A stretch of 64,000 bases of DNA. It comes from an uncultured bacterium (GTDB taxonomy: Bacteria > Verrucomicrobiota > Verrucomicrobiia > Limisphaerales > UBA11358). The position numbers and the translations under genes are program-made. The stretch lies in NCBI GenBank assembly GCA_963723125.1, contig CAVRPQ010000001.1, positions 761,767 through 825,766 on the forward strand. The letters run 5' to 3'. This document shows positions 7,956 through 29,681 of this stretch, in pieces (the stretch's first letter is position 1; each line of letters begins with the position of its first letter). The notes beneath the pieces are model-generated. The model had not been told where the DNA came from, did no database searches, and worked only from the letters and a program-made list of their open reading frames with translations.

Positions 7956-7968
7956 AAAATCAATCGCT

Positions 7969-9747: not shown

Positions 9748-9781
9748 AATCGTCAATCGAAAATCTTAAATCGTAAATGCT

Positions 9782-10528
9782 ATGAGCCAATGGGTCATCA
9801 ACGGCATTCGCGCCGGAATCAAAACGACCGCGTATCCAGCCAAGCCGGAGGCTGGGGCAGGTGTGACGCCTGGTTTGCCGGTGGGCGGAGATTATCCCGC
9901 TAGCGAAATTGATTCACTAATTTCGCGTTGCCCAACCGATGTGTTCAGCGACAGCGACGGCCAAATTATCGCGGACGTTCGTCGCTGCATTCATTGTTAC
10001 CGCTGTGTTCGCGACATTGAACACCCGGTGAATTGGCAGCAATCCTATGAGTGGGGAATTGCCCGTGACGGCCAGCATGAATTCGGCCAGCCGTTCGAGC
10101 GTTCGATTCATATCTGCGTCGTGGACGCGGGCGATTGTGGCGCGTGCCTCAATGAAGTTCGGCAACTCAACAATCCGTATTACAACATGCACCGGCTCGG
10201 ATTTTTCATCACGCCTTCGCCGCGCCACGCGGACGTGCTGCTGGTTGTCGGCCCGGTAACGGACCACATGAAGTTCGCATTAAAGAAAGTTTATGATGCC
10301 ATGCCCACACCCAAGCGGGTCATCGCCGTCGGTGCGTGCGCTTTGACCGGCGGAGTGTTTGCCGGGAGTTTTGTCTGCGCCAAGGGAGTGGCGGACGTGT
10401 TGCCGGTGGACGTGGAAGTGCCCGGCAATCCGCCGCCGCCACTGGCAATTCTGCACGGGCTGCTTGTGGCGGTTGGTCGCAAAGCGCCGGCGGCGCGGGC
10501 AACTGAAAATAAGGTGGTGAAAGCATAA
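9782..10528 (+). CDS. NuoB/HycG-like small subunit with N-terminal ferredoxin remnant (EhrS-like)
   Basis: DCGACLNEV, SPRHADVLLVVGPVT and AVGACALTGG match HycG/NuoB. VPGNPPPP replaces PGCPP. The N-terminus keeps RCP...CIHCYRC (one 4Fe-4S-like motif). Confidence 0.85.
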   Translation: MSQWVINGIRAGIKTTAYPAKPEAGAGVTPGLPVGGDYPASEIDSLISRCPTDVFSDSDGQIIADVRRCIHCYRCVRDIEHPVNWQQSYEWGIARDGQHEFGQPFERSIHICVVDAGDCGACLNEVRQLNNPYYNMHRLGFFITPSPRHADVLLVVGPVTDHMKFALKKVYDAMPTPKRVIAVGACALTGGVFAGSFVCAKGVADVLPVDVEVPGNPPPPLAILHGLLVAVGRKAPAARATENKVVKA

Positions 10529-12757
10529 ATGGATACGCCAACGCTCATTTCAATCTTTTTTGCGCTTTGCGGCGTGGGCATTTTGCTGTCGCTGGCCGCA
10601 CCCCGGTCGCGTCAAGGCAACGTGCTTGCGTGGCTGGGTTGTCTCGCATCCATTGCTTTGATTTTGGCTGGCGCAAGCGCATTGCTGGCCGGAAAGACTT
10701 TCAACCAGCCGCTATGGACGTTGCCGGGATTGGCGGCCACGCTCACGGTAAAATTGGACTTCCTCTCGGCGGTGTTCATTTTCGTCACCGGCCTGGTGCT
10801 TTTTCCAGCTTCAATTTTCGGGCGTGGCTGCGACGCCTCGTCGCAGGCGCGTGGACGCGACGCCCGCGTCGCGCGAGAAACAGAGGGCGACGAGGCGTCG
10901 CCTTTACCTTCTGCGACGAGGGCGTCGCAGCCACGCGCGTTCACGGTATTCATGTTCGGCCTCTATGCGTCCATCGCCCTGATTTTTCTGGCGGGTGATG
11001 TCGTGCCGTTCCTTCTGGCATGGGAAGTGATGTCCATACTTTGTTGGCTGCTCATCGTGTGCGCACGGGAAAAGGGAAATGACCATGCTGGTTCGGGTTA
11101 TCTGCTGCTGGCGATGGGAGAAGCGGGAACGCTCGCGGCGGCGCTTGGTTTTCTTCTGCTCGCGGTTGGAACCGGATCATTGGATTTCGGCGGAATCAGG
11201 TCGGCGGCGTCAGGCTTGGACGCTGGAGTGCGATGGGCGGTCTTCCTGCTTTCATTCTTCGGCTTCGGCGTGAAGGCCGGATTGGTCCCGGTGAATTTCT
11301 GGTTGCCGCGCGCCTATGTCGCCGCGCCGCGCGCTTTTGTGCCAGTGCTGGCGGGCGCGACGCTGAACCTCGGCCTTTATGGAATTTTGCGAGTGAACGC
11401 CGACCTCATGCCGGCGACCCACACCGCGCCGGGCTTGGTCGCGCTCATTGTCGGCACACTCTCCGCTCTGATCGGGATTCTTTATGCGACGACGGACAAT
11501 GACCTCAAAATCATGCTGGCGCACAGTTCAATTGAGAACGTGGGCATCATCGTCGCCGGCTTCGGCGCGGGAATGGTTTTTGTGGCGACCAATCATCCGG
11601 CGCTGGCGGCAATCGCCTTCGTCGCGGCGCTGTATCATTTAATCAATCACTCGCTATACAAAACTCTGCTGTTCTTCGGCGTGGGGACGGTGGAAGCACA
11701 AACCGGCACGCGCGACATGGACCGGCTCGGCGGCTTGAGCAAATGGATGCCGCTCACCTCCCTTGGATTTCTCGTCGGCGCGCTTTCCATCGCCGGGCTG
11801 CCGCCGTTCAACGGTTTTGTGAGTGAATGGCTAACGCTGCAAACCATGCTGCGCTCGGCGGAACTTTCGGCGATTGGCGCAAAATTGGTTTTCGCCCTGT
11901 GTGGCGCGGGGCTGGCATTGACGGCGGCTTTGGCAGTCACTTGTTTCGTGAAAGTTTATGCGATGAGCTTTTTGGGAATGCGACGCCTGGAGGAAGAACA
12001 GAAAGTCAACGAAGCCAAATCCGGCTCGCTCACGCCAATGGCCATCCTTGCCGCGTTGTGCCTCGCGTTTGGCGTGCTGCCAACATACATAATTCCCGCG
12101 CTGGCCCTAGCGACCAATTCCTTGGATGGCGTGAGTGCCGCCGATGCGCTTGTGCCACCATTCTTTGCTTCCAGTCCGGCGCACGGCACGTTACCGCCCG
12201 CCTTCGTTGAAGATTTTCATAATATCGGCGCCCAAGTGGGACAAAGTATTCTACCCGGACGCGGCTTGGTCGTGCTCCATCGAGGCGGCACGGAAAATCC
12301 GGTGGTCTTCGCCATGTCCACTTCCTACATGATCGTGGTTTTGCTTGTTTTGCTGCTGCTGACATACGTTATTGTCTGCCTTTGGCTGACGCGCAGCCGG
12401 AAATTGACGCGGCGGCTGCGTTGGGACGGCGGCGTGCGAAATTTGCTGCCGGAGATGACTTACACGGCGACGGGCATTTCCAATCCAGTGCGGGTGATTT
12501 TCGACGCGGTGTTCCGGCCAACAACGGTGGAGGACACGCGCGAAACCGTGGCGGAACATTTTCGCACGGCCATCATCCGTGAGAAAGAGCGCGTGCATTT
12601 GGTGGACAAGCTGGTTTTTCATCCGGTCAGGACGGTGGTGATGTGGTTTGCCGGCCGTCTGGCGCGGATGCACCACGGACGATTCAACGCCTACGCGGCG
12701 TATGCGCTGTTGACGTTGCTGGTCGTGCTGGTCGTGTTTTTATTCCAAACATCGTAA
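10529..12757 (+). CDS. NuoL/HyfB-like antiporter subunit, paralog 1 (EhrA-like)
   Basis: 742 aa. Motifs WEVMSILCWLLI, FGFGVKAGLVPVNFWLPRAY, AHSSIENVG. HyfB-type C-terminal domain RWDGGVR..LPEMTYTATG. Confidence 0.9.
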   Translation: MDTPTLISIFFALCGVGILLSLAAPRSRQGNVLAWLGCLASIALILAGASALLAGKTFNQPLWTLPGLAATLTVKLDFLSAVFIFVTGLVLFPASIFGRGCDASSQARGRDARVARETEGDEASPLPSATRASQPRAFTVFMFGLYASIALIFLAGDVVPFLLAWEVMSILCWLLIVCAREKGNDHAGSGYLLLAMGEAGTLAAALGFLLLAVGTGSLDFGGIRSAASGLDAGVRWAVFLLSFFGFGVKAGLVPVNFWLPRAYVAAPRAFVPVLAGATLNLGLYGILRVNADLMPATHTAPGLVALIVGTLSALIGILYATTDNDLKIMLAHSSIENVGIIVAGFGAGMVFVATNHPALAAIAFVAALYHLINHSLYKTLLFFGVGTVEAQTGTRDMDRLGGLSKWMPLTSLGFLVGALSIAGLPPFNGFVSEWLTLQTMLRSAELSAIGAKLVFALCGAGLALTAALAVTCFVKVYAMSFLGMRRLEEEQKVNEAKSGSLTPMAILAALCLAFGVLPTYIIPALALATNSLDGVSAADALVPPFFASSPAHGTLPPAFVEDFHNIGAQVGQSILPGRGLVVLHRGGTENPVVFAMSTSYMIVVLLVLLLLTYVIVCLWLTRSRKLTRRLRWDGGVRNLLPEMTYTATGISNPVRVIFDAVFRPTTVEDTRETVAEHFRTAIIREKERVHLVDKLVFHPVRTVVMWFAGRLARMHHGRFNAYAAYALLTLLVVLVVFLFQTS
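10826..10932. repeat. palindromic element family B, copy B2 (in frame in paralog 1)
   Basis: GGCTGCGACGCC ... GGCGTCGCAGCC. Encodes [36 protein letters not shown]. Absent at this position in paralogs 2 and 3. Confidence 0.85.
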
Positions 12758-12768
12758 AACTTTTTCAA

Positions 12769-13011
12769 CCACGGATGGACGCGGATGAACACGGATAAAA
12801 AAAGCTGTGCGTGGTCAGAAATCGCGCCAGCGTCCTGGAGTGCGGTGGCAGAGCGCAGCGACGACACCGCTTTCCCACGCCGGACGGCACCCGCAGCGAT
12901 TGATACTCGTGCCGCCGAAAGCGGCGTCGCGCTCCGCTTGCCGCCGCAGTCCAAAACCTCGCGGCGGTTCGAGCGGAGTTTGAATCCGTGTCCATCCGTG
13001 TTCATCCGTGG
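12769..13011. repeat. MITE-like structured element of about 243 bp between paralogs 1 and 2
   Basis: Imperfect terminal inverted repeats built from ATCCGTG units (ccacggatggacgcggatgaacacggat / atccgtgtccatccgtgttcatccgtgg). Internal imperfect palindrome (gagtgcggtggcagagcgcagcg... / ...cgcgctccgcttgccgccgcagtc). Confidence 0.8.
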
Positions 13012-13025
13012 TTCAGATTGAATTT

Positions 13026-15227
13026 ATGAGCGCGGATGGATTGCTGCTCACGCTGATTTTCGCGCTGTGCTTTGCCGGCGCGCTGGCGGGAATTTTTGTC
13101 CCCGACCGGCGCAATCCGGCGCTGCTGGCCTGGACCGGATCGCTGGCGGCGCTCCTGACGTTGTGGGTCAGCGGCAATGTCCTGTGGTCGGGGCAAGTGT
13201 TCCAAGCCGAACTCTGGACGATTCGTGGTTTGGGAACGCTGACCGTTTCAATTGACCGTCTCTCGGCGCTCTTCCTGGCAGTGGCGGCGCTGGTGGTTCT
13301 GACCAGTTCGATTTTCTCGGCGGGTTATTTGAAACGCTATTCCGGCCACTACAACCTGAAGGCGCACAACGCCTGGTATCTGCTGCTGTTCGCTTCCATC
13401 GTGCTCATCCTGATTGCGAACGACGCGCTGTTGTTCCTGCTGGCGTGGGAGGCGATGTCCATTTTGAGCTATCTGCTCGTCAATTTCGAGCACCGTCGCG
13501 CCGAAACCAGCCGCGCGAGTTATCTCATGCTGGTAATGGGCGAAGCGGGCTTCATCGCGGTCGCGCTGGTGTTCCTGTTTCTCGCGGTGAAAACCGGCTC
13601 GCTGGATTTTTCTGCGTTCAGAACGGCGGGCGCTAACCTCGGCGGCTTTGCCCGCTGGACAATTTTTCTGCTGACGTTCTTTGGTTTCGGCGTCAAAGCC
13701 GGGTTGGTGCCGGTCAACACCTGGTTGCCGCGCGCCCACCCTGCCGCGCCTGCGAACGTCTCGGCAATTTTGTCCGGCACGATTTTGAACCTGGGACTTT
13801 ACGGTATTGTCCGCGTAAATCTCGACCTCGTGTCCGTCACGCAAAACGGAATGATTGGCGCGGGCGTGGTGGTGCTCATCATTGGGACAATTTCCGCACT
13901 GGTCGGAATCCTCTATGCGACCACCGAGAACGACCTCAAGGCCATGCTCGCACACAGCTCGATTGAAAACATCGGCATCGTCACCGCCGGCCTCGGCGCG
14001 GGCATGATTTTCACCTGCTACAACAAACCAGCACTGGCGGGCATCGCTTTCATCGCCGCGTTTTATCACATGATCAACCACTCGGTGTATAAATCGCTGC
14101 TGTTTTTTGGCGCGGGAACCGTGGACGACCGCGCCGGCACGCGCGATTTGAACAAACTCGGCGGCCTGATTCGCGCAATGCCGTGGACGGCGGGTGCGTT
14201 TTTGGTGGGCACGCTGGCGATTTCAGCGTTGCCGCCGTTCAACGGGTTCGTCAGCGAATGGCTCACGCTGCAAACGATGCTGCGCTCGGCGGAACTGCCC
14301 TCGACGCTCGTGAAATTGGTTTTCGCGTTATGTGGCGCGGGGCTGGCGCTCACGGCGGCACTGGCCGTGACGTGTTTCGTCAAGGCGTTTGCGATGGGCT
14401 TTCTCGGCATGTCGCGTTCAGAAGAAGCCGCCAAAGCCGTGGAAGCGAAAACTCCATCAATCGCGCCGATGATTCTTTTGGCATCGCTCTGTGTGCTGCT
14501 CGGCGTGCTGCCGACATACATAATTCCGGCGTTGGACACGGCGGTTCGTGGCTGCGACGCCTCGTCGCAGAGCGTGGGTGCGACGGGGGCGTCGCAGCCA
14601 CCAAATGCCGCCGACGCGCTGGTGCCGCCTTTCTTCGCCTCGAACCCGGCGCACAACACGTTGCCAACCGCGCTCGTGGAAGACTTTCATAATATCGGCG
14701 CGCAAGTTGGACAGAATGTATTGCCCGGACGCGGCTTGGTGGTGCTCCATCGCGGCGGCACGGAAAATCCGGTCGTTTTTGCCATGTCCACCTCCTACAT
14801 GGTCATCGTCTTAGGCGCATTGCTATTGGGGGTTTACGTTGTCATCCGCTTGTGGCTGACGCGAAATCGAAAGTTGGCTCGGCGGACACGCTGGGATGGC
14901 GGGGTGCGGCGTCTGTTGCCGGAAATGACTTACACGGGCACCGGCTTTTCCAATCCGGTGCGCGTGATTTTTGACGCGGTGTTTCGCCCAACCACGGTGG
15001 AGGACACGCGCGAAACCGTGGCGGAACATTTCCGCACCGCCATCCGGCGCGAGCGGGTGGCGGTGCATATCGTGGATCGCTGGTTCATCCAGCCGACCAA
15101 AAATGCCGTGATGGGATTGGCCCGTGGTCTGGCGGTGATGCACCACGGGCGCATCAACGCCTACGCCGGCTACGTGTTGCTGGCGCTGCTGGCGGTCGTG
15201 CTGTTTTTGCTGATACTGACATCGTGA
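13026..15227 (+). CDS. NuoL/HyfB-like antiporter subunit, paralog 2
   Basis: Start taken at ATG 13026 (MSADGLLL), just past the repeat element. Collinear with paralogs 1 and 3. Confidence 0.9.
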   Translation: MSADGLLLTLIFALCFAGALAGIFVPDRRNPALLAWTGSLAALLTLWVSGNVLWSGQVFQAELWTIRGLGTLTVSIDRLSALFLAVAALVVLTSSIFSAGYLKRYSGHYNLKAHNAWYLLLFASIVLILIANDALLFLLAWEAMSILSYLLVNFEHRRAETSRASYLMLVMGEAGFIAVALVFLFLAVKTGSLDFSAFRTAGANLGGFARWTIFLLTFFGFGVKAGLVPVNTWLPRAHPAAPANVSAILSGTILNLGLYGIVRVNLDLVSVTQNGMIGAGVVVLIIGTISALVGILYATTENDLKAMLAHSSIENIGIVTAGLGAGMIFTCYNKPALAGIAFIAAFYHMINHSVYKSLLFFGAGTVDDRAGTRDLNKLGGLIRAMPWTAGAFLVGTLAISALPPFNGFVSEWLTLQTMLRSAELPSTLVKLVFALCGAGLALTAALAVTCFVKAFAMGFLGMSRSEEAAKAVEAKTPSIAPMILLASLCVLLGVLPTYIIPALDTAVRGCDASSQSVGATGASQPPNAADALVPPFFASNPAHNTLPTALVEDFHNIGAQVGQNVLPGRGLVVLHRGGTENPVVFAMSTSYMVIVLGALLLGVYVVIRLWLTRNRKLARRTRWDGGVRRLLPEMTYTGTGFSNPVRVIFDAVFRPTTVEDTRETVAEHFRTAIRRERVAVHIVDRWFIQPTKNAVMGLARGLAVMHHGRINAYAGYVLLALLAVVLFLLILTS
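14550..14599. repeat. palindromic element family B, short copy B3 (in frame in paralog 2)
   Basis: ggctgcgacgcctcgtcgcagagcgtgggtgcgacgggggcgtcgcagcc, encoding GCDASSQSVGATGASQP. Paralogs 1 and 3 lack it at the same site. Confidence 0.85.
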
Positions 15228-15272
15228 TGAGTCCGACATTCGTCGAAGTCGTCGCGGCAGTGGAAAAGATTT

Positions 15273-17447
15273 ATGGCCGCGAATGGCCTGTTGCTGGAAT
15301 TGATTTTCGCGCTGTGCGTTGCGGGCGCGCTGGCGGGAATTGTTGTCTCCGACCGGCGCAGTCCCGCGCTGCTGGCCTGGGCCGGCTCGTTGGCGGCGCT
15401 GCTGGCGTTATGGGTCAGCGGAAGCGTCCTGTGGTCGGGCCGAATTTTTCAAGCCGAACTCTGGACCATTCCCGGCTGGGGAACGCTGACGATTTCTCTC
15501 GACCGTTTGTCGGCGTTCTTTCTGGCGGTGTCGGCGTTGGTGGTTTTGGCCAGTTCCATTTTTTCGGCGGGCTACCTAAAACGATACATTGGGCATTACA
15601 GCCTTCGTGCGCTGAATGCGTGGTATCTGCTGCTGTTCGCTTCCATCGTGCTGGTTTTAATTGCCAGCGACGCGCTCCTGTTTCTGCTGGCGTGGGAGGT
15701 GATGACGATTTTGAGTTATCTGCTGGTCAATTTCGAGCACCGGCGCGCGGAAACCAGTCGGGCAGGCTATCTCATGCTGGTGATGAGCGAGGCGGGATTC
15801 ATGGCGGTCGTCTTGGTCTTTCTGTTTTTGGGCGCAATGGCCGGCTCGCTGAACTTCGCTGCCTTGAAAGCCGCCGGGCCAAATTTGGGCGGTCTAGCGC
15901 GCTGGCTGATTTTCCTGTTGACGTTTTTCGGCTTTGGCGTCAAGGCGGGACTGGTGCCCGTGAATTCATGGCTGCCGCGCGCACACCCGGTCGCGCCGGG
16001 AAACATTTCCGTGATCCTCTCCGGCGTCATCGTGAATCTTGGCATCTATGGCATCATGCGCGTCAGCGTGGATTTGGTGCCGGTGACCAGCGTGATTCCG
16101 GGGCTGATTGTTCTGCTGGTGGGCGCGGCGTCGGCGTTGATCGGCGTATTGTATGCCAACATCGAGCACAATTTGAAGACCATGCTGGCGCACCATACTG
16201 TCGAGCAAATGGGGATTGTCACCATCGGGCTGGGGGCGGGACTGGTCTTCGTGGCGGCGGGGCGGCCCGTGCTGGCCACCATCGCCTTCATCGCTGCCAT
16301 TTATCACATGGCCAATCACTCGTTTTTCAAGGGACTGCTCTTTTTGTCGGCGGCTTCGGTGGATGCCACCGCCGGTGCGCGAAACATTGACCGGCTGGGG
16401 GGCTTGATCAAGCGGATGCCGTGGACGGCGTTCTTTTTCCTCATCGGCGCAATTTCACTGGTGGCGCTGCCGCCGTTCAACGGCTTTGTCAGCGAGTGGC
16501 TCACCCTGCAAGTGCTGCTGCGAAGCACGGAACTGTCCTTCACCGGCGCGACGGGCGCGAAAATTGTTTTCGTCCTGTGTGGCGCGGGCCTGGCGCTGGC
16601 GACGGCGCTGGCGGTCAATTGCTTTGTAAAGGCTTTCGCCATGACCTTCCTCGGCGTGGGACGGTCCGACGACGTGAACGCAGCGAGGGAAGCGCCCCAT
16701 TCTATGACTTGGGCGATGGGGCTGCTGGCGGCGTTGTGCCTCGGCTGTGGCGTGTTGCCGACTTATATCATCCCGGTTTTGAATAACGTGATTACGCCGT
16801 TGACGGGCGGAAATGCGATAGACGCGCTGGTGCCGCCATTTTTCGTTTCCAATCCGGCGCACAACACGTTGCCGCCCGCGTTCGCGCAGGATTTTCACAA
16901 CCTGGGGGCGCAAGTCGGGCAAAATGTTTTGCCCGGACGCGGGCTGGTGGTCATGCACCGCGGCGGCGCGGAAAATCCGGTCGTTTTCGCCATGTCCACT
17001 TCCTACATGGTTGTTGTGCTCATAGGCTTGCTGGTGATAACCTACGTCGTCCTGCGCTTGTGGCTGACGCGCCGCCAGAAACTGGTGCGGCGGCAACGGT
17101 GGGATGGCGGCGTGCGGCGGCTGTTGCCGGAGATGACCTACACGGCGACGGGCTTTTCCAATCCGGTGCGCGTCATTTTCGACGCCGTGTTCCGCCCGAC
17201 GACGATTTCGGACACGCGCGAGACCGTGGCGCAACATTTCCGCACGGCCATCCACCGCGAGCGCGTGGAAGTGCATGTGGTGGACCGATGGTTCCTCCAG
17301 CCGATGCGGAATACCGTGACGAATTTGGCCCGCCGCCTCGCGGTCATGCACCACGGGCGCCTCAACGCCTACGCCGCTTATGTGCTGCTGGCGGCAATGC
17401 TGGCCGTGGCGATTGGGGTGATTGGCTTATTACTTTGGTCAAACTGA
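15273..17447 (+). CDS. NuoL/HyfB-like antiporter subunit, paralog 3
   Basis: 724 aa, collinear with paralog 2 (same motifs and same C-terminal domain). Confidence 0.9.
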   Translation: MAANGLLLELIFALCVAGALAGIVVSDRRSPALLAWAGSLAALLALWVSGSVLWSGRIFQAELWTIPGWGTLTISLDRLSAFFLAVSALVVLASSIFSAGYLKRYIGHYSLRALNAWYLLLFASIVLVLIASDALLFLLAWEVMTILSYLLVNFEHRRAETSRAGYLMLVMSEAGFMAVVLVFLFLGAMAGSLNFAALKAAGPNLGGLARWLIFLLTFFGFGVKAGLVPVNSWLPRAHPVAPGNISVILSGVIVNLGIYGIMRVSVDLVPVTSVIPGLIVLLVGAASALIGVLYANIEHNLKTMLAHHTVEQMGIVTIGLGAGLVFVAAGRPVLATIAFIAAIYHMANHSFFKGLLFLSAASVDATAGARNIDRLGGLIKRMPWTAFFFLIGAISLVALPPFNGFVSEWLTLQVLLRSTELSFTGATGAKIVFVLCGAGLALATALAVNCFVKAFAMTFLGVGRSDDVNAAREAPHSMTWAMGLLAALCLGCGVLPTYIIPVLNNVITPLTGGNAIDALVPPFFVSNPAHNTLPPAFAQDFHNLGAQVGQNVLPGRGLVVMHRGGAENPVVFAMSTSYMVVVLIGLLVITYVVLRLWLTRRQKLVRRQRWDGGVRRLLPEMTYTATGFSNPVRVIFDAVFRPTTISDTRETVAQHFRTAIHRERVEVHVVDRWFLQPMRNTVTNLARRLAVMHHGRLNAYAAYVLLAAMLAVAIGVIGLLLWSN

Positions 17448-17471
17448 AACCAAAACTTGAAACCGAAAACT

Positions 17472-18827
17472 ATGAGTAAAATTGAAAACATAAACGCACA
17501 GGAAATTCTGGATTCGCGCGGCAACCCGACCGTCATGGTCACGCTCACGCTCGAGAATGGCATTACCACGTCGGCCTGCGTGCCGTCCGGCGCGTCCACC
17601 GGCATTCGCGAAGCCGTGGAACTCCGCGACGGCGACGCCAAACGCTACGGCGGCAAAGGCGTGCTCAATGCAGTCGCCAACGTCAACAAAATCATCGCGC
17701 CAAAACTCAAGGGCAAATCGCCGCAGGCCCATAAGGAAATTGACGAATTGATGATCAAATTGGATGGCACGGAAAACAAATCCAAACTCGGCGCGAACGC
17801 CATTCTGGGCGTTTCGATGGCCGTTTGCCGCGCGGCGGCGCTGGATTCCGACACCCCGCTTTACGCTTACATCTCCAAGTTGCATGGTAGGGCGCGTCAC
17901 TCCGTGCGCGCCGAACGAGGTGGTCACGAAAGCGGCGCGCAGGGGACTGACGCGCCCTACCTTTTGCCCGCGCCGCAAATGAACGTGCTCAATGGCGGCG
18001 CGCACGCGACCAACAACGTGGATTTTCAGGAATTCATGCTGTTCCCCATCGGCGCGCCGAGTTTTGCCGAGGCCTTGCGCTATGCGGCGGAAACGTTTCA
18101 TACGCTCAAAAAAATTCTGCAAAAGCGCGGACTGGTTTCCGCCGTCGGCGACGAGGGCGGTTTCGCGCCGAGCCTCAAAACGAACGACGAAGCGGTGGAG
18201 TTGATTCTTGAAGCCATTAACGCTGCCGGTTACAAACCGGGGAAGGACATCGCACTCGCCATTGATCCGGCCGCCAGCGAGTTTTACGACAGCGGCGCTT
18301 ACGTCTTCAAAAAATCCGACAACTCGCGCAAATCGCCAGCCGAAATGGTCGAACTGTATCGCGGCTGGCTGGACAAATATCCCATTCTCTCGCTCGAAGA
18401 CGGCATGGGTGAGGAAGATAACGACGGTTGGAAAGCGTTGACCGCCGCTCTTGGCAAAAAACGGCAACTCGTCGGCGACGACAATTTCGTCACCAACCCG
18501 AAAATTTTTGCCGAAGGCATTCGTGACGGCATTGCCAACGCGATTCTCATCAAATTGAACCAAATCGGCACGGTCAGCGAGACGCTCGAAACGGTGGCGA
18601 TGGCGCAAAAGGCCGGTTACGGCACGGTGATTTCACATCGTTTGGGCGAAACCGAGGATGCCTTTATCGCGGATTTCGCCGTTGGCACCGGCGCGGGCCA
18701 GATCAAGACCGGCTCGCTTTGCCGGTCGGAACGAATTGCAAAATACAATCGCCTGCTCGCCATTGAACGCGAGTTGGGCAAAAAATCGCGCTACGGTGGC
18801 GCGGCGTTTAATGCCCGTTGGAAGTGA
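17472..18827 (+). CDS. eno: enolase (phosphopyruvate hydratase) carrying an in-frame repeat insertion
   Basis: [21 protein letters not shown]..., [44 protein letters not shown]. Confidence 0.95.
17886..17961. repeat. palindromic element family A, copy A2 (reverse orientation, in frame in eno)
   Basis: ggtagggcgcgtcactccgtgcgcgcc...gcgccctacc, encoding [25 protein letters not shown] between YISKLH and [13 protein letters not shown]. Confidence 0.9.
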
Positions 18828-18999
18828 TAGTATGATTTGGGAGCGCCGCGACTTGGATCCACTAGGCAAACTCCATTACCCGCGGGAGGGGCCGGGAGAA
18901 ATCCGGTCACCACATTCAAGGCGTGTGCGCTCCCTTTAACCGCTCTGTAGAGTGCCGGGATGGTTGTTATTCGTCCCAAAGGATGGTAAAGTTTTAGCA

Positions 19000-19085
19000 G
19001 GCAATGAAGTTTGCCCGTCCGCCTTTGCGGCGAACCGCCTTATGGCTAATGACTTCTACCGAAACTGAACCAGTATCGGTAACGA
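19000..19085 (+). promoter_or_regulatory. structured 5' leader, copy 2
   Basis: GGCAA/TTGCC, CCGC/GCGG, core GGCTAATGACTTCTAC, TACCGA/TCGGTA helix ending just before ATG 19089. TTGTTA-17-TAAAGT promoter upstream. Confidence 0.6.
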
Positions 19086-19088
19086 GTC

Positions 19089-20786
19089 ATGCAAACAACC
19101 AGTTCAGACGAGCGCCTCGAACTGAAGGCGTGTTCAGCGGGCCAGCAGGGGGAAGCGGCGATTCGCGTGATCGCTCCTTCCAATAGGGGCTTCCAAAGTA
19201 TTCTTTTTGAATCTCCCGGCTCTGGAAACCTCGGAGATAACGTTGAGCCGCCGGCCTTTTTTCGGGATTTGAACCTCAATCAGATCGTGGACGCCATCAC
19301 AGCGGGCTGCGAAGAATACAATCTCAAGCCATTCTTTTACACCCGCCCGAATGATCTTGCGGCGATTATTTACCGGCAGGAAGTCATGCGCGACCTTGAA
19401 ACCGCACCGCTGTTCGAGGGCATCAAATCGTTCTCAAACCAAACGCACACGATGCGCAATCATCTCGCCGCTGCGAAAAATTGGCACTACAAGTTCTCGA
19501 AGGGCCGGTGGTTTCTCGATGCTGCGGAAATCTATTGTGCGGCGGTTGTGGAATTGCGGCGCATTCTCGAACACGCCAGTCCCACTTCGCGCGGCCTGCA
19601 CGCCTTTCGGGAATATCTGGCGCAGTATGTTGAATCCGACCGTTTCAAAACACTATGCCGAGAAGCGGAAAATGTGAAATCCGGTTTGTCGGCCATCCGC
19701 TATAGTGTGCGCATCAAGGGCGGCAGCGTTACGGCGAGTCCTTATGATTCCGAGATTGATTACACCGCCGCCGTCGAGGAAACGTTCGCCAAATTCAAGC
19801 AAGGTGCGGTGAAGGATTATCGCTGCAAGTCCACGTCGCTACCGGGCATGAATCACGTCGAAGCCGGAATTCTTGACCGTGTAGCACATTTGAATCCCCA
19901 AGCGTTTCGCGCGCTGGACGACTTTTGCGCGAAGCACGAAAATTTCCTCGAAAAACCAATTGCCGATTTCGACCGCGAAATTCAGTTTTACGTCGCGTAT
20001 TTGGAGTATGCGGAAACCTTCAAACGCGCCGGACTGAAATTCTGTTATCCGCAAGTATCAGACACGCGCAAGGAAGTTTGCAACCGCGATGGATTCGACC
20101 TGGCGTTGGCCGGCAAACTTTTAGGTAGGGCGGGCAGTCCTCTGCCCGCCGTCCCGCAAGGCGAAACCAACGAACGGCGCGCACGGAGTGACGCGCCCTA
20201 CCGCATCGTTTGCAATGATTTCTCTTTGAGTGGGCCGGAACGGATTTTCGTCGTCACGGGACCGAATCAAGGCGGCAAGACGACGTTTGCGCGCACGTTC
20301 GGACAATTGCATTATTTGGCGAGCCTCGGCTGTCCCGTCCCCGGCTCGGAAGCGCGACTTTTTCTCTTCGACCGCCTGTTCACCCATTTTGAGCGCGAGG
20401 AGGACATCAGAACGTTACGCGGCAAGTTGCAAGATGATCTGGTTAGGATTCATCACGTTCTTGAACAAGCCACGCCGAACAGCATCGTCATCATCAACGA
20501 AATTTTTTCCTCCACGAGCGTCAAGGACGGCGTTCATCTGGGCAAGAAAGTGTTGGAACGTCTGTCTCAACTTGATGTGTTGGGCGTTTGCGTGACCTTT
20601 CTGGATGAACTCGCCTCCTTCAATGAAAAGACCGTGAGCGTGGTCGCTGCCGTCGCGCCGGAAAATCCCACGCAGCGCACTTACAAGGTTGAGCGAAGGC
20701 TGGCGGACGGACTGGCCTATGCGCTGGCGATTGCCGAGAAATACCGGCTCACCTACGACCAGCTGAAAGCGAGATTAAAGCCGTGA
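19089..20786 (+). CDS. MutS-family ATPase (domain V type, no recognisable mismatch-binding or Smr domain), paralog A
   Basis: [20 protein letters not shown] (Walker A), [13 protein letters not shown] (Walker B region), VTFLDEL. Confidence 0.8.
20124..20202. repeat. palindromic element family A, copy A3 (in frame in MutS-like A)
   Basis: ggtagggcgggcagtcctctgcccgcc...gacgcgccctacc, encoding [26 protein letters not shown]. Confidence 0.9.
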
Positions 20787-22519
20787 AAGCGCACCTGCTG
20801 TATCGCGACCGCGATTTCGATCTGCAACAGAAATTGCCGGCGAACGAACCGGCGCTGACGCAAGATTTGGAACTGAACACGCTGTTCCGCGCAATGGCCG
20901 GCGGTGACGAATTTCTGTTTCACGTGGCAAAGCGAACGGTCTTGTCGGGTTTGGAAAATGATCTTGCAACCATCCTCTATCGCCAAGCCATCCTCAAGGA
21001 TTGCCTGCGGAACGAAGCCGCCGTAAGGGAAATTTACGACATCGCCGTTGAAGCTATTGAAACCAAACGGACGCATTGGCTGGGTGTTTTCAGCCGCTAT
21101 CCAAGTGGCATCTTGTATGAAGCGGTGAAATTGCTACAAATGTTGATGGGCGTGCTGGCCAAGCTGAAGCGCGTGGCCGATGAGGCCGGTAGGGCGCGCA
21201 GTCCTCTGAGCGCCGTGAACGCTGAGGGACAAACTTCAATTTCCGAACGGCGCGCACGGAGTGACGCGCCCTACCAATTCGAGTCGGAAGGTTTCAAAAC
21301 CTTCTTCGAGATGCTTAAGGCGGAATTGGCGGATGATTATTTTGCCGCCGTCGAAGCGCAACTCAAGGAACTGGAATTCAAGGATGGCGTGTTGGTGAGC
21401 GCGGAATTGGGCGAAGGCAATCAGGGTGTCAATTATGTCCTGCGCAAATCGCTGCGCCCCAGGCCGGGTTGGTTCCAGCGGATTTTTTTACGAAATTCCT
21501 CCGCCTACACCTTCCACATTGACCCACGCGATGACGGCGGTTTCCGTGCTTTGTCGGAATTGCAGGACCGGGGAATCAATTTGGCGGCAAATGCCGTCGC
21601 CCAAGCCGCCGACCACATTACAAGTTTCTTCGTCATGTTGCGGACGGAACTGGCGTTTTACATCGGCTGTCTGAATTTGCAGCATCAGCTTGCGTGGAAA
21701 GGGATGCCGGTTTGCTTTCCGGTTCCCGTGCCGTCCGGCACTCGCAAGCAAACCTGTGTCGGGTTGCGCGACGCCTGTCTTGCGCTGGTTTGTGGCCGCG
21801 ACGCCTCGGCGCGCGAAAAAAAGACCGTGCCATCTGGTTTGCCCATCGGCACAGGTGACGCGGCGTCACCTTTACCTTCTGCGACTAGGGCGTCGCAGCC
21901 ACCTGTCGTCGGCAATGACTTGGCTGCCGATGGAAAGAACCTCATCATCATCACCGGCGCTAATCAAGGCGGCAAATCCACCTTCTTGCGTGGCGTGGGC
22001 CTGGCGCAATTGATGATGCAATGCGGCATGTTCGTCGCTGCCGATTCTTTCAGCGCCGACCTATGCCGCAGCCTGTTCACGCATTACAAGCGCGAGGAGG
22101 ACGCTACGATGACAAGCGGGAAGTTCGATGAGGAACTCGCCCGCATGAGCGGCATTGCCGATGCGCTGACGTCCACCCTCCGCAGTGCTACGGAGGACGG
22201 GTCGGATTCGCTGCTGCTGTTCAACGAGTCCTTCGCCGCGACCAACGAACGGGAAGGTTCGGAGATTGCCCGGCAGATTGTCCGCGCGCTGCTGGAAACG
22301 CGTGTGAAAATCTTTTTTGTGACGCATCTCTACGAATTCGCCCGAACCTTTTGGGAAGATAAAATGGACAGTGCCGTTTTTCTGCGCGCCGAAAGGCAAG
22401 CCGATGGGCAAAGAACTTTCAAGTTGCTGCCGGGCGAGCCGTTGGAAACCAGTTTTGGCGCGGACTTGTATCAAGAGGTTTTTGAAAGTGGCAATGAGCG
22501 CAAAGTTTTGACTCCATGA
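20783..22519 (+). CDS. MutS-family ATPase (domain V type), paralog B
   Basis: GTGA overlap (GTG start) with the upstream stop. [48 protein letters not shown]. Confidence 0.8.
21188..21275. repeat. palindromic element family A, copy A4 (in frame in MutS-like B)
   Basis: ggtagggcgcgcagtcctctgagcgcc...gacgcgccctacc, encoding [29 protein letters not shown]. Confidence 0.9.
21794..21900. repeat. palindromic element family B, copy B4 (in frame in MutS-like B)
   Basis: ggccgcgacgcc ... ggcgtcgcagcc, encoding [36 protein letters not shown]. The right half is near-identical to B2. Confidence 0.85.
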
Positions 22520-23238
22520 ATAACTCAATTCCATTTATCGGCCGCGAAAAGGAAATTGCGCGGTTGCGCCAGTTGCACAAAGAACGTCGGCATGTGCTGA
22601 TTCTTGGCGCGGAAGGGGTGGGCAAATCGGCCCTTGTTGCGCATCTGCGCAAATCGCTCCGCTTGCGCGTCTGTCCGGCGTCGCAACGTTTAAGCGAAAT
22701 TTGTGACGCGCTGGAGCGAGACCTTGGCCTTGAAACCGGCGAACTGCATCTGATTGCGCGCAAGAATCGCGTGCTGAAATCGCTCAAGGAAGCGAAGCGC
22801 ACCGTGGTGGTTTTTGACGGCGCAAGCTGGACAACGCCCAGACTCGGCTCGTTCATCGAAAATGTCAGCGAGCGTGTGCCGGTATGGTTATGCGTCCGTT
22901 CGGAACATCCGTGGGACGTTGGCCGTATCTGGCCGTTGCTGGTGCGGTTCGAGCACGTCGAGTTGAAACCGTTTCGTCCGGTGGAAAGCCGGACGCTGGT
23001 CGAAGCGGCTATTCGGGGCAGTCATGTTCCAGAGAAGACTTTGGACGTTGTTGACTGGCTGCATCGGCGGTCGGCGGGCAATCCAAAAATCTTGTGTGAG
23101 CTGTTGGTGGAAATCGCCCACGGCCATTACAACTTGAGTAACACACACGCGCTGCAACGGCTGGATTTGGACCGGCGCATCCATGAGATTTTTCCGATGG
23201 GAATGAGTGGTGGGAAAACAAGGGTTCAGGATGAATGA
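22516..23238 (+). CDS. AAA/ORC-like P-loop ATPase
   Basis: ATGA overlap with the upstream stop. FIGREKEIARLRQL...VLILGAEGVGKSALV (Walker A), TVVVFDG (Walker B-like). Confidence 0.7.
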   Translation: MNNSIPFIGREKEIARLRQLHKERRHVLILGAEGVGKSALVAHLRKSLRLRVCPASQRLSEICDALERDLGLETGELHLIARKNRVLKSLKEAKRTVVVFDGASWTTPRLGSFIENVSERVPVWLCVRSEHPWDVGRIWPLLVRFEHVELKPFRPVESRTLVEAAIRGSHVPEKTLDVVDWLHRRSAGNPKILCELLVEIAHGHYNLSNTHALQRLDLDRRIHEIFPMGMSGGKTRVQDE

Positions 23239-23647
23239 GGCAATGCTTGTGGCGCTCGCAGGGGCCGTGGCTTTGTTCATGGTTACACTGGTCAAGGCGG
23301 AGTTCTCTCCCGATTTGAGAGCTGCCATTCGCACCACGGTCATCGTGGCCTTGGGATGGAGCTTTGCTTACGCTCGCTACGGAATGAAAACGTGGGCAAA
23401 CTTGACGTGGCAAACGCTATGGATGCTAGGGATTTCCGCGCTGGCAGTAATTCTCGCGTGGCTGTTTTATTGTCGCGCAAGCCGGAAGCAAACCGTTCCG
23501 CGCGTGGCGGTGATGGATCGTGTCAATGCCGGTCTGGCAATCCTTTTCGCCGTCCTGTTTCTGTTGCAACAAGTGTCCGCACAATCCACGCTCACCGGGT
23601 TCGCCCTGGTTGGCGGCGCGTTGTTTTTTGTCCTCGGCTCACGATGA
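23231..23647 (+). CDS. small 4-TM membrane protein (EamA/SMR-like)
   Basis: MNEAMLVALAGAVALFMV... with four hydrophobic spans. Start overlaps the upstream stop (ATGAATGA). Confidence 0.6.
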   Translation: MNEAMLVALAGAVALFMVTLVKAEFSPDLRAAIRTTVIVALGWSFAYARYGMKTWANLTWQTLWMLGISALAVILAWLFYCRASRKQTVPRVAVMDRVNAGLAILFAVLFLLQQVSAQSTLTGFALVGGALFFVLGSR

Positions 23648-25665
23648 ACGAAAACCACCAACGCCATCTGCTCGCCACGTTTCAACACGTGGACAATCTG
23701 CTTTCCGAGGCGGATCACATTCTGGCGTCCGCCGGTTCGTCCTCGCCGTTTCAGGAATACTCGCAGGATTCCACGCCGGTTCAGCGTAAGGTGACGCACG
23801 ATTACATTTTGCGCGTGCGCGAAACCATGCGGCGCATCCTTGACGAACTGAGAATCCCGCCGAAGCCGCCAGTCTCCGGCGCGTTGTGGGCGGCGCGCAA
23901 TCACACGGCCTTCGCCGGTATCGCGGTCACGGAACTCGAACCGGAACACATGCTCGGTTACGGAAAACTCTCGGATGAAGACCAGCAAACACTCGACCGG
24001 ATTGTCGCGGAACTAAACTCGGTTCTCAATCGTCTCAATGCTTATCTCGCTCAAGGAACAGACGCCGATTTGCAGACGCGCCTGCAACGGCTCGAACAAA
24101 CCAAGGACGAGGTGAAATTGCTGCGCGAGTTGGAACGAATCATTACCGCGCACGGTCTGGTTGAATTTCGCGTCACCCTGGCACTTTTGCTCGACCGGCT
24201 GGAAATGAACACGTTTGAAATTGGCGTCTTCGGGCGGGTCAGTTCCGGCAAATCGTCTTTGCTCAATCATCTGCTCGACGGCGAATTTCTGCCGGTGGGC
24301 GTGACGCCCGTGACGGCTGTGCCGACGCGAATCAGTTTTGGTCCGCAGCCGGAAGCCACGGTTGAATTTGCAGAAAGCAAACCGCAAATCGTTGAGTTGA
24401 CACGCCTCGCTGAATTCTCCACGGAGCAACAAAACCCCGGCAACGCCAAACACGTCACGCGGATTCACGTTCAAATCCCGGCGAAGCGCCTTCGCGAAGG
24501 TGTCACCTTCGTGGACACGCCCGGCCTCGGCTCGCTGGCAACTTCAGGCGCGGAAGAAACCGCCGCTTACCTGCCGCGTTGCGATTTGGGAATCGTGTTG
24601 CTCGACGCGGGCGCGGCGTTGACACAAGAAGACCTTGTCGTGGTTCGGTCGCTTTATCGCGCCGGCGCAACGGCAACAGTGCTCATTAGCAAGGCGGATT
24701 TGATCGCCCCACCCGACCGCGAGCGAATGATTGCCTACGTTCGCCGGCACTTGCTCTCGGAACTGAACTTGAACCTGTCGGTGCATCCAGTCAGTGTGGT
24801 TGCTGCGGAAATGCAGCTTTGCGACGAATGGTTTGAGCACGAATTAAAACCTTTGCTCGAATTACATCGGGAAAATGCCGTCACGTCATTGAAACGCAAA
24901 ATCGGCGGCTTGCGCGAAACTGTGGAGCGCATGCTTGAAACCCGACTTGAAAACACACGTGGCGGCGACACTCAAGGTGCTACAACTTCAGTTTCCCAGC
25001 GCAAGGAAGCCGCCGAGGCGCTCCGAAATGCCGACGCGATTCTGGAAACCGCGCAACGAAGCGGCGATTCGCTGGCTTACAAGATTCGTTCGCTGGTGGA
25101 ACAAGTTATTGAAGTTCTTGCCGACGACGTTGCCGCCGTCTGGAGCAAAGCAAATGGAAAATCCAAAACGGCTGCGGAAATCGTTTCCGACTCGTTGAGC
25201 CAAATCGTTTCGAGTCAAGGCGCAAAGTGTGTCGCTGCGCTGGCCCAAGTGCGGGAGCAACTCGCGCAAACGTTGCAATCAGCACATCGGGCGTCGCGCG
25301 TCACCCGCGAGCCGCCCGAAGCATTACCGGAAGCGAGCGGATTGCCGTTGATTGATGTCTCGCCGGTTTCCCGCAGGATCACCCTCAAAAAGCCGATGCT
25401 GTTGCCGATTTTCGGCCAAGCCGTTCTGCGAAGCTACGTCCGCCAGCAGTTGAAGCAACAACTCGGCGATGCTTTTTCCGAATTTTTAGGGCTGGCGGGC
25501 AAACAATGGGAGCAATGGTATCGGCGCGCGCTGGCTGAATTGCAAAGAACCTTTGCCGCCAGCGCCGGAATTTATCAGGCACAGTTACAGCAATTGTCGG
25601 GCACCGCATCCGGCGAATCGGAACTTCAAAAAGACCTGGATGTTTTGAAAAGCTGGCCCAAATAA
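23644..25665 (+). CDS. dynamin-like GTPase, paralog 1
   Basis: ATGA overlap with the upstream stop. G1 GRVSSGKSSLLN, G3 FVDTPGLGS, G4 ISKADL, followed by a long helical stalk. Confidence 0.8.
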   Translation: MNENHQRHLLATFQHVDNLLSEADHILASAGSSSPFQEYSQDSTPVQRKVTHDYILRVRETMRRILDELRIPPKPPVSGALWAARNHTAFAGIAVTELEPEHMLGYGKLSDEDQQTLDRIVAELNSVLNRLNAYLAQGTDADLQTRLQRLEQTKDEVKLLRELERIITAHGLVEFRVTLALLLDRLEMNTFEIGVFGRVSSGKSSLLNHLLDGEFLPVGVTPVTAVPTRISFGPQPEATVEFAESKPQIVELTRLAEFSTEQQNPGNAKHVTRIHVQIPAKRLREGVTFVDTPGLGSLATSGAEETAAYLPRCDLGIVLLDAGAALTQEDLVVVRSLYRAGATATVLISKADLIAPPDRERMIAYVRRHLLSELNLNLSVHPVSVVAAEMQLCDEWFEHELKPLLELHRENAVTSLKRKIGGLRETVERMLETRLENTRGGDTQGATTSVSQRKEAAEALRNADAILETAQRSGDSLAYKIRSLVEQVIEVLADDVAAVWSKANGKSKTAAEIVSDSLSQIVSSQGAKCVAALAQVREQLAQTLQSAHRASRVTREPPEALPEASGLPLIDVSPVSRRITLKKPMLLPIFGQAVLRSYVRQQLKQQLGDAFSEFLGLAGKQWEQWYRRALAELQRTFAASAGIYQAQLQQLSGTASGESELQKDLDVLKSWPK

Positions 25666-27779: not shown

Positions 27780-28759
27780 ATGGCCAAAGTTCAAACTCTT
27801 CCAGCGTTCACGCTCGACCAAAGGACCAGAGCACATGCGCTGCTCGCTGCGAAAGTCGCCTACATGATGGGGCGCAAATTTGAGGAGGGTGACTGGGCGG
27901 AAGTTTATTGCAAGGCCAAGGGCATTCCGGTCCGGGGTTGGAGCAACCTGAACATTGACCTCATGCACGAGGGCCTCGGCGTCGAACACAAGATGCTCTG
28001 TTACCGTTCGGATGCCGACCTCGCGGAAGCCTTCGGGCAAACGCTCATGCACCCGGCAGCAACGCGTTCCATCCGGGTGCCGCCGACCAACGTTGCCGCT
28101 GACAAAGCGATGCGGGACATTTTCCAACAGTATGCGGCGCTGATTCAGCAACGGACAAACAAAGTCAGCGAAACCGCGCCGAAGGGCAAAGAATCGGATA
28201 TGCGGACCGGCTGGCTTTTGTGGCAGGAAAGCTTGCGCCAGTTCCTGTATTTTGAAGAACCGATGCTCGCTCCCGATCCGAAGGATTTTTATGCCGAGTG
28301 GCACGATAGCGGTGGTGGCGCGCGCAAGGCTAGTCGTAATCTCTGGGTTTTGACAAAGCCACCGGCCACAAACGCTATTCCATCACCACATCCGCCGGCG
28401 CAAAAATTCAGCCCTACTTCGATGTGCCGCCGCCGAACGATCCAAACGTGTATCTGTTCACCGTCATCGGTGAAGTGATCGGGGTCGGGATGGTGCGGGT
28501 CTGGCTGACCATCGCGACATTTCGGGAATTGAAACGCGTGCTCGGCGAATTCGACACAGCCAAGCTCAGTGAGTTTGTATTGCGGAAACTGGAGGGTATC
28601 TCACCGAGCCTGACAATTCGGGAGGGAAATGAACCTGCCGCTGAATCCATTATTTTGACGGCAGACGCTTATTTGAAGCTCAAGGCCGTGTTCCCCGGCG
28701 TAAACGACGACAACAGTTTTCAGTTATTTCTCGAACTTCTGGGTGGCAGACAATCATAA
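27780..28759 (+). pseudogene. putative PD-(D/E)xK restriction endonuclease, frameshifted
   Basis: Starts 2 nt after the methyltransferase stop. Candidate catalytic NIDLMHEGLGVEHK. The reading frame jumps at G3T4 (28345-28351); one extra T restores ...RNLWVFDKATGHKRYSITTS... (326 aa). Confidence 0.6.
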
Positions 28760-28828
28760 ATTTCATTTTTAAGATATTGCTGGTTTTGCGGCGCTTGCCA
28801 TTGAAGCAGCGGATGCTATATTGAATCC

Positions 28829-28911: not shown

Positions 28912-28913
28912 TT

Positions 28914-29668: not shown

Positions 29669-29681
29669 AAGGCAATGAACC

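Follow-up and report, generated by a model that had tools for sequence, protein, structure and literature searches.

Five repeated leader RNAs in a Verrucomicrobiota genome are very probably fluoride riboswitches with an additional linker hairpin

Introduction

Fluoride riboswitches (crcB motif, Rfam family RF01734) are structured leader RNAs with fluoride as the established ligand of the family (Baker et al. 2012, as far as it is summarized in the review PMC7266159). According to the logic proposed for the family, ligand binding blocks a competing stem (Weinberg 2010, PMC2864571). The same study listed mutS and formate hydrogen lyase with the motif, and a 2024 review (PMC11139923) lists enolase, formate hydrogen lyase and phosphatases in the regulon of the riboswitch. 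Here we describe a leader RNA that occurs five times on the forward strand of a 64,000-nucleotide stretch of DNA from an uncultured bacterium (Verrucomicrobiota; Limisphaerales; UBA11358; assembly GCA_963723125.1, contig CAVRPQ010000001.1, positions 761,767 to 825,766), in the following called the window. The five leaders are very probably fluoride riboswitches of a linker-hairpin sub-type, with copies 1-4 as putative translational ON switches and copy 5 probably in decay.

The copies in the window share helices P1 and P2, the pseudoknot between the P1 loop and the 3' tail, and the position in a 5' leader with the described fluoride riboswitches. The conserved blocks GGCRAUGG and GGCURAUGACUCCUAC, the proposed ON logic of a competing stem, and enolase, MutS-like and formate-hydrogen-lyase-like targets are also common to both. 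The gene content of the window fits the published regulon, since the association of the riboswitch with MutS, formate hydrogen lyase and enolase is on record. The copies differ from the described RNAs by a hairpin of 12-17 nucleotides (nt) in the P1-P2 linker, by the lack of an exporter gene behind any of the five (there is a CrcB remnant only), and by a platform that appears to act on translation and not through a terminator. A second described system, the Pedo-repair motif (RF01715), resembles the copies as a candidate cis-regulatory leader RNA near repair-type genes. It matches them neither in sequence nor in structure, it belongs to Pedobacter, in another phylum, and its ligand is unknown, whereas that of the fluoride riboswitch family is known.

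Results

Identification of the leader RNAs

We scanned the whole 64-kb window with cmscan and Rfam 15. Copies 1-4 are members of RF01734 with scores of 53.4, 50.2, 48.3 and 38.6 bits (E 4e-7 to 6e-12) at a curated gathering threshold of 34 bits. Copy 5 was found with permissive filters at 28.3 bits (E 9e-4), which is under this cut-off. The matches to RF01734 are:

4199-4280, forward strand: copy 1
18991-19065, forward strand: copy 2
28820-28892, forward strand: copy 3
33484-33560, forward strand: copy 4
33787-33859, forward strand: copy 5

A lineage-specific covariance model (R1), built from three seeds of equal length, detected exactly five copies in the window at E<=1e-11 (49.9-81 bits), with 55.9 bits for copy 1, 55.7 bits for copy 4 and 49.9 bits for copy 5. 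Both searches thus recovered the five copies that a sequence-only reading, made from the letters of the window, had located, and its view of them as cis-acting structured leaders is supported. From the family membership we infer that these copies bind fluoride and that their genes would be induced by it.

The only additional match of R1 lies on the reverse strand between the enolase gene and copy 2 (18830-18880, 13.5 bits, E 0.056). It has a good P1, GGUAAUGGAGUUUGCC. We set this candidate sixth copy aside as a chance match or a relic of an inverted copy.

Aptamer structure

Each aptamer comprises four helices, namely P1, the linker hairpin, P2 and the pseudoknot:

4208-4274, forward strand: aptamer of copy 1; P1 4208-4223, linker hairpin 4225-4238, P2 4244-4261, 3' strand of the pseudoknot GACUCC 4266-4271 (RF01734 53.4 bits, E 5.6e-12; fold)
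19000-19059, forward strand: aptamer of copy 2; P1 19000-19015, linker hairpin 19016-19032, P2 19037-19046, 3' strand of the pseudoknot GACUUC 19051-19056 (RF01734 50.2 bits)
28829-28886, forward strand: aptamer of copy 3; P1 28829-28844, linker hairpin 28845-28859, P2 28864-28873, 3' strand of the pseudoknot 28878-28883 (RF01734 48.3 bits)
33493-33554, forward strand: aptamer of copy 4; linker hairpin 33513-33525, one-base insertion in the P1 loop, AUGGAUGUC (RF01734 38.6 bits)
33796-33853, forward strand: aptamer of copy 5; linker hairpin 33813-33825, GGUGGAUGACUCCCAC in place of GGCUAAUGACUCCUAC (RF01734 28.3 bits; R1 49.9 bits)

Helix P1 corresponds to a first hairpin, GGCA...UGCC, that the sequence-only reading had recognized. 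The second hairpin of that reading, said to show compensatory changes between copies, is real as well. It is a hairpin of 12-17 nt inserted in the linker between P1 and P2 and is treated as an insertion in the alignment of the Rfam model. Its stem differs from copy to copy: copy 1 has ACCC/GGGU, copy 2 CCGC/GCGG, copy 3 UCCCG/CGGGA, copy 4 CCCG/CGGG and copy 5 GCUGC/GCAGC.

The conserved block GGCTAATGACTCCTAC was found with the variants ACTTC in copy 2 and GGTGGATGACTCCCAC in copy 5. It had been described as an invariant single-stranded core with a substitution in copy 2 and a divergent copy 5. The block and its two variants hold, but the core is not simply single-stranded: GGCUAAUGACUCCUAC resolves into the 3' strand GGC of P2 (helix GCC...GGC), the conserved junction UAAU and the pseudoknot strand GACUCC, so that P2 and the pseudoknot had been missed. 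GACUCC pairs with GGAGUU in the P1 loop, which is the pseudoknot of the family. In copy 2 the loop GAAGU and the tail ACUUC form a compensatory A-U pair inside the window itself.

Copies 1-4 retain AUG in the P1 loop as well as AUGA and CUAC; copy 5 has CCAC. The crystal structure of the Thermotoga petrophila fluoride riboswitch is said to have been described by Ren in 2012. In what we take to be its numbering, the ligand site is formed by A6, U7 and G8, by U41 and G42, and by the A40-U48 pair. The U of CUAC is presumably U48, the partner of A40, and the C of copy 5 falls at this position.

Covariation in homologues

Two sets of homologues were analyzed. Set 1 comes from a pattern scan of 185,579 species genomes that required a long distance from P1 to the core and gave at least 120 stretches (L002-L121). 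Among the matches listed these belong to Verrucomicrobiota, Acidobacteriota, Alphaproteobacteria (Methylobacterium, Aureimonas, Acidomonas), Bacillota, Planctomycetota and others, and they yielded 122 aptamers, which were aligned by covariance model. In 44 of 116 distinct sequences of these matches a linker hairpin accounts for the additional length; most others have a long P2 loop instead. Since Set 1 was picked by an RNA pattern, Set 2 was made with a protein as anchor. It consists of metagenome loci chosen for relatives of the metallophosphoesterases described below (79 loci, L122-L200) and yielded 75 aptamers.

In Set 1, 95.8% of the cells are in standard pairs compared to 87.5% in shuffles, and none of 500 shuffles reached the observed value. 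Partners slid out of register as a control pair in only 28-61% of the cells. All five pairs of the linker hairpin (5/5) vary on both sides. Set 2 gave 96.0% paired cells, 13 of 18 pairs that vary on both sides, and no shuffle out of 500 that reached the observed value of any measure. Covariation with more homologues, which had been set as a test beforehand, is thus supported in both sets.

P1 and P2 are paired in 99-100% of the cells across both sets. Pair 4 of P1 is GC in 66 and AU in 54 aptamers of Set 1 (AU 54, GC 14 in Set 2), and the three pairs of P2 all vary on both sides in Set 2 (3/3). For the pseudoknot 96.7-98.5% of the cells are paired, with compensation from GC to AU at two positions (5/122 and 13/69). 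The two pairs concerned are columns 8-119 in Set 1 (GC 117, AU 5, unpaired 0; n = 122) and columns 10-156 in Set 2 (GC 50, AU 13; n = 69); the A-U pair of copy 2 is the former.

Expression platform

Copies 1-4 have a second helix downstream of the aptamer in their minimum-free-energy fold. It pairs the 3' part of the aptamer with the translation-initiation region. The z-scores refer to dinucleotide shuffles of the downstream segment (500 shuffles):

4269-4297, forward strand: platform of copy 1; UCCUACCGA (4269-4277) pairs with UCGGUGGGA (4289-4297) over the ribosome-binding region GGUGGGA, 8 nt before the ATG at 4305 (-13.2 kcal/mol, z -3.6, 3/500 shuffles)
19049-19090, forward strand: platform of copy 2; AUGACUU-C-UACCGA (19049-19062) pairs with UCGGUA-AC-GAGUCAU (19076-19090), including A and U of the start codon at 19089 (-13.3 kcal/mol, z -3.8, 2/500 shuffles)
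28876-28915, forward strand: platform of copy 3; AUGACUCCUACCA (28876-28888) pairs with UGGUAG-U-GGGUUAU (28902-28915) and reaches the start codon at 28914 (-16.0 kcal/mol, z -4.8, 0/500 shuffles)
33544-33588, forward strand: platform of copy 4; AUGACUCCUACUG (33544-33556) pairs with CCGGUAG-C-GAGUUAU (33575-33588) and reaches the ATG at 33587 (-15.5 kcal/mol, z -5.1, 0/500 shuffles)

Keeping GACUCC unpaired costs 6.6-11.3 kcal/mol in the folds of copies 1-4. A 3' helix of CUCCUACC with GGUAG-n-GAG had been proposed from the letters for the leaders in general. It stands for copies 1-4 (z -3.6 to -5.1, reached by no more than 3 of 500 shuffles) and not for copy 5, where no sequestering 3' helix was found (duplex z +1.0). 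As had been noticed, the GAG of copies 2-4 ends 2 nt ahead of the ATG (19089, 28914 and 33587), and the helix extends into the first two bases of this codon.

The pairing is not confined to the window. The complement GGUAGCGAGUCAUG recurs in other Verrucomicrobiota before first genes of different kinds (metallophosphoesterase, MutS-like, AAA_16). When the pseudoknot strand was compared with the next 57 nt in 115 homologues, we observed an excess of complementarity (median z -2.4, z below -2 in 66 of them).

The sequence-only reading had also pointed to the resemblance of the core to the anti-Shine-Dalgarno sequence of 16S ribosomal RNA. The CUCC strand can indeed occlude the ribosome-binding region in copies 1-4, but the resemblance to 16S RNA is only indirectly relevant. 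Conservation of the strand is due to its pairing with the P1 loop in the pseudoknot of the aptamer, as shown by the compensatory changes including GAAGU/ACUUC in copy 2.

A terminator-like stem with a U-tract between aptamer and start codon was found at none of the five leaders scanned. As for promoters, sigma70-like elements had been assigned to four copies. In a formal sigma-70 scan of the five leaders only copy 3 passes, and copies 1, 2 and 4 show weaker TTG...TAnnnT matches, seen by eye in the alignment, which are plausible but weak:

28795-28822, forward strand: promoter of copy 3; TTGCCA-16-TATATT with extended TG, predicted transcription start approximately at the first base of P1 (sigma-70 scan)

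Proposed mechanism

Based on the masking helix over the initiation region and the lack of terminators we propose that copies 1-4 are translational ON switches. The 3' strand of the aptamer, (A)UGACUCCUACC, would have two mutually exclusive partners. In the presence of fluoride the ion would be bound via Mg2+, as in the solved structures of fluoride riboswitches, and GACUCC would pair with GGAGUU of the P1 loop. With the pseudoknot closed, the ribosome-binding region and the start codon would be free and translation would be ON. In the absence of fluoride the strand would pair with GGUAG-n-GAGUCAU upstream of and into the start codon (helix GACUCCUACC/GGUAG-GAGUCAU), and translation would be OFF. 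Four operons would thereby be induced by cytoplasmic fluoride, those of copies 1-3 and, behind copy 4, a single orphan reading frame.

In preQ1-II and SAM-II riboswitches a short 3' strand is likewise common to the pseudoknot of the aptamer and the translation-initiation region. There, however, the ligand buries the ribosome-binding site (OFF), whereas in the copies described here the pseudoknot would withdraw the strand that masks this site (ON).

Genes behind copy 1

The downstream genes named in the sequence-only reading (MutS-like ATPases, metallophosphoesterases and an Ehr operon) were confirmed by Pfam as MutS_V proteins, metallophosphoesterases and an Ehr-type complex. Copy 1 is followed by:

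4305-4412, forward strand: leader open reading frame of 35 codons, ending 8 nt before the DUF190 gene, with a terminator-like hairpin at 4335-4359
4420-18827, forward strand: operon of a DUF190 gene (4420-4788), eight subunits of a complex I / Mrp / hydrogenase-4-like, Ehr-type complex (4785-17447) and enolase (17457-18827) (Pfam)

We assign the membrane complex to the Ehr type because its NuoD/HycE-like large subunit (7969-9747) is without the C-terminal Ni-Fe cysteine motif. The published association of the riboswitch with formate hydrogen lyase may in such cases mean non-hydrogenase complexes of the Ehr/Mrp type. The leader reading frame is a remnant of the N-terminus of CrcB: the CrcB protein of locus L105 matches 4299-4373 in tblastn (56% identity over 22 residues, E 9e-4). 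A similar remnant of 50 codons abuts the first Ehr gene in the relative L031. Translation of the leader reading frame may couple the switch of copy 1 to the 14.5-kb operon.

Genes behind copies 2 and 3

The operons of copies 2 and 3 and the two genes between them are:

19089-25665, forward strand: operon of copy 2; MutS-like ATPase 1 (19089-20786), MutS-like ATPase 2 (20783-22519), AAA_16 P-loop nucleoside triphosphatase (NTPase; 22516-23238) and dynamin-like GTPase (23356-25665) (Pfam, NCBIfam, PADLOC)
25870-27777: PglX-like methyltransferase (DUF1156-type), shorter than the model (PADLOC E 1.9e-127)
27780-28478: uncharacterized open reading frame of 232 residues beside the methyltransferase, between the two riboswitch operons
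28914-33360, forward strand: operon of copy 3; frameshifted metallophosphoesterase (28914-29405, continuing in another frame to approximately 29626), metallophosphoesterase-dUTPase_2 fusion (29682-30818), dynamin-like GTPase (30822-32462) and FGE-sulfatase-like protein (32422-33360) (Pfam; tblastn for the frameshift)

In the MutS-like pair only the ATPase domain V is recognizable, and approximately 370 N-terminal residues are unassigned. The gene order of copy 2 is also found behind a riboswitch in L019 and L066. L019, an uncultured Verrucomicrobiae genome, is the closest species-level relative among the matches listed (68-90% protein identity over the region). In these two closest relatives, AAA_16 and dynamin-like NTPase genes follow the MutS-like pair. 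Tandem MutS-like pairs near riboswitches occur in L019, L066, L099, L105, L055 and L071, including an Acidobacteriaceae isolate and a proteobacterial metagenome-assembled genome. Most genomes in the sample are metagenome-assembled, but L055 (Acidobacteriaceae bacterium TAA 166) is a cultured strain, in which both phosphoesterase and MutS-like genes are linked to riboswitches. The MutS-like protein is identical in the NCBI assembly GCA_049591015.1, with conserved gene order.

The methyltransferase and its neighbour were found in none of the related riboswitch loci and are, for this reason, probably an unrelated insertion (the remnant of a defence system). We rejected an anti-phage defence reading of the cargo, since the dynamin-like proteins give only weak LeoA-like PADLOC matches and the strong PglX-like gene is not part of the module.

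The first metallophosphoesterase after copy 3 splits between frames near 29340-29400, either by a frameshift or by a sequencing error. The gene calls of GCA_049591015.1 split the same gene too (163 + 88 residues).

Gene content of related riboswitch loci

Among the matches listed, 22 of the 8-kb riboswitch loci of other genomes contain DUF190, 16 enolase, 13-15 dynamin-like genes, 11 AAA_16, 8 a metallophosphoesterase and 6 the MutS-like pair, and the operon orders are conserved across these loci. Genes of a YfcE-like subfamily of metallophosphoesterases (approximately 243 residues) nearly always stand behind a fluoride riboswitch. Among the 53 testable metagenome homologues with at least 50% identity, 48 have an aptamer upstream on the same strand: within 250 nt in 42 (mostly at 23-35 nt) and farther upstream in 6. 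At 40-50% identity the aptamer was found for 4 of 22 homologues, two within 250 nt and two farther upstream.

Across the 79 metagenome loci the companions of the phosphoesterase are dynamin-like genes (42-44), FGE-like genes (22) and AAA_16 (19); a dynamin-like GTPase gene usually follows the riboswitch-linked phosphoesterase. The module also stands behind riboswitches outside Verrucomicrobiota (L010, L058 and L108). It is quite possible, though we would not call it probable, that the array marks a conserved, putatively fluoride-induced module of YfcE-like phosphoesterase and dynamin-like GTPase, often with an AAA_16/STAND-like NTPase, an FGE-sulfatase-like protein or the MutS-like pair. In the literature searched, no paper ties the fluoride riboswitch to dynamin, to this phosphoesterase or to the module, in a search that did not extend to the gene table in the supplement of Baker et al. 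2012; for the riboswitch together with metallophosphoesterase it gave an unrelated table entry only.

Right end of the array

Two features follow copies 4 and 5:

from 33587, forward strand: open reading frame of 110 codons after copy 4, overlapping copy 5 throughout (no Pfam match)
33885-34316, forward strand: truncated metallophosphoesterase after copy 5, residues 1-133 of homologues of approximately 243 residues (tblastn, Pfam)

A homologue of the 110-codon reading frame was found on one near-identical metagenome contig only (1 of 79 loci). Copy 5 is probably decayed, since it has no masking helix, a substitution in the core and a truncated gene. On its right-hand side the array thus appears to consist of duplicated units of riboswitch and gene that are decaying. 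Five copies in one array are not exceptional, since three to four riboswitches lie within 8 kb in L118 (Acidomonas methanolica DSM 5432, a cultured acetic acid bacterium), L099 and L097.

Immediately behind the truncated gene of copy 5, and beside tRNA-Asn(GTT), is an integrase-like reading frame on the reverse strand (34645-35683, no Pfam match). A mobile element may have integrated at this end of the array.

Farther downstream the window contains an element of 1,475 bp in three copies with 99.9-100% identity:

45026-46501, reverse strand: first copy
48117-49591, forward strand: second copy
56915-58389, forward strand: third copy

It encodes a protein of 473 residues with a weak UPF0236 (transposase-like) match and is presumably an active insertion sequence.

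Discussion

Several observations weigh against the assignment as functional, translationally acting fluoride riboswitches. Fluoride binding and induction are deduced from family membership. An intact gene of a fluoride exporter (crcB or CLC-type) is lacking in the 64-kb window, where only the CrcB remnant was found. The pseudoknots are imperfect in three copies, with a U-U mismatch in copy 1 (loop GGUGU), an A-C mismatch in copy 3 (loop GGAAUC) and a one-base bulge in copy 4. With GGUAGCGAG instead of AGGAGG, the ribosome-binding sequences are weak, and the start codon may matter more than they do as the element that is occluded. Control of the 14.5-kb operon via the 35-codon leader reading frame of copy 1 requires an extra coupling step. 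The first gene of copy 3 is frameshifted, the reading frame of copy 4 is unrecognizable and the gene of copy 5 is truncated, so that part of the array may be non-functional. Finally, both alignments were fitted to the structure of the model, which favours this structure, and the pattern used for Set 1 fixed part of the sequence. In spite of this fitting we regard the covariation signal as real because of the control with slid partners and the fully compensatory changes in the pseudoknot.

An identity as Pedo-repair RNA, a cis-regulator of repair genes with unknown ligand, had been suggested by the sequence-only reading, which also placed that motif in Pedosphaera. All that speaks for it is a loose connection to MutS-like, repair-type genes, and it can be dismissed with near certainty: even with permissive filters cmscan gave no match to RF01715 at E<=1 in the 64-kb window, both strands included, and all five loci are claimed by RF01734. 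Moreover, the motif was described in Pedobacter (Bacteroidetes; Weinberg 2010, PMC2864571), whereas the closest relatives of the window, among the matches listed, are Verrucomicrobiae metagenome-assembled genomes, with 78-90% protein identity of its genes to L019. The ligand, which had been called unknown, would be that of the fluoride riboswitch family. A different ligand of the linker-hairpin sub-type would explain the MutS-like, AAA_16, dynamin-like and metallophosphoesterase cargo, which has no obvious link to fluoride, and the Rfam model handles the linker hairpin as an insertion. This insertion, however, lies outside the conserved core, which is intact in copies 1-4. Linker-hairpin aptamers stand directly upstream of CrcB in L105, L060 and L081 and directly upstream of CLC in L009 (Methylobacterium fujisawaense) and L110. 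The sub-type also precedes enolase in other genomes, and enolase together with DUF190 in this window, and aptamers with and without the hairpin are mixed within the same loci. We consider a change of ligand very unlikely. The 2010 seed alignment has wide insertion columns after P1 and includes Verrucomicrobia among its taxa (supplement of Weinberg 2010, PMC2864571). Among the long-linker members sampled, from several phyla, roughly half carry the hairpin. Since exporter genes follow the sub-type elsewhere, the core of copies 1-4 is unchanged and the seed alignment contains these insertion columns, we regard the linker hairpin as existing variation of the family and not as a new class.

The remaining alternatives accept fluoride riboswitches and differ in how these would act. 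Control could be exerted mainly on transcription, by intrinsic or Rho-dependent termination. Untranslated leaders are generally prone to termination by Rho, and the terminator-like hairpin at 4335-4359 lies within the leader reading frame of copy 1, translation of which could gate read-through. Furthermore, many described crcB-motif RNAs overlap terminators (PMC2864571). Against this, a stem with U-tract is absent between every aptamer and its start codon, by which we rejected intrinsic terminators as the platform, and the alternative helix of copies 2-4 ends in the start codon, a signature of translational control. Predominantly transcriptional control is therefore unlikely in our view. We judge it slightly less likely still that copies 4 and 5 form a functional tandem which would give the downstream metallophosphoesterase a sharper or two-threshold response. 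Two aptamers separated by 240 nt, on one strand and ahead of a single gene, would fit such a tandem, as would the frequent clustering of riboswitches in relatives, where L118 (Acidomonas methanolica) has four in 8 kb and L099 and L097 have three each. Copy 5, however, scores below the Rfam cut-off, has a C for the conserved U of CUAC and is without the sequestering helix. Its gene comprises only residues 1-133 of approximately 243 and adjoins the integrase-like fragment, and the reading frame of copy 4, with its homologue on only one near-identical metagenome contig, extends through copy 5. We thus favour four fluoride riboswitches that probably act on translation and a fifth copy in decay.

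Since the RNA belongs to a well-characterized family that routine annotation detects, it is already known. The main value of the RNA result is correct annotation: a standard Rfam scan identifies the RNA, and the ligand of its family is known. The window offers a clean natural case of one strand that would toggle between the pseudoknot of the aptamer and a mask of the start codon. The flaws in the pseudoknots and the strengths of the masking helices differ between the four copies, which could set operon-specific fluoride thresholds.

The little-studied cargo of NTPases and phosphoesterases is the more useful lead. A link between MutS-like proteins and the fluoride riboswitch has been noted since 2010; here the pair travels with AAA_16 and dynamin-like NTPases. 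Together with the phosphoesterase subfamily that nearly always stands behind the riboswitch, these are candidate fluoride-response proteins that are amenable to genetics. As to the role of the module we can only speculate. It might repair damage to membranes or nucleic acids caused by hydrogen fluoride (HF) and fluoride, it might provide fluoride-tolerant substitutes for inhibited phosphoryl-transfer enzymes, or it might trap fluoride as metal-fluoride-nucleotide complexes.

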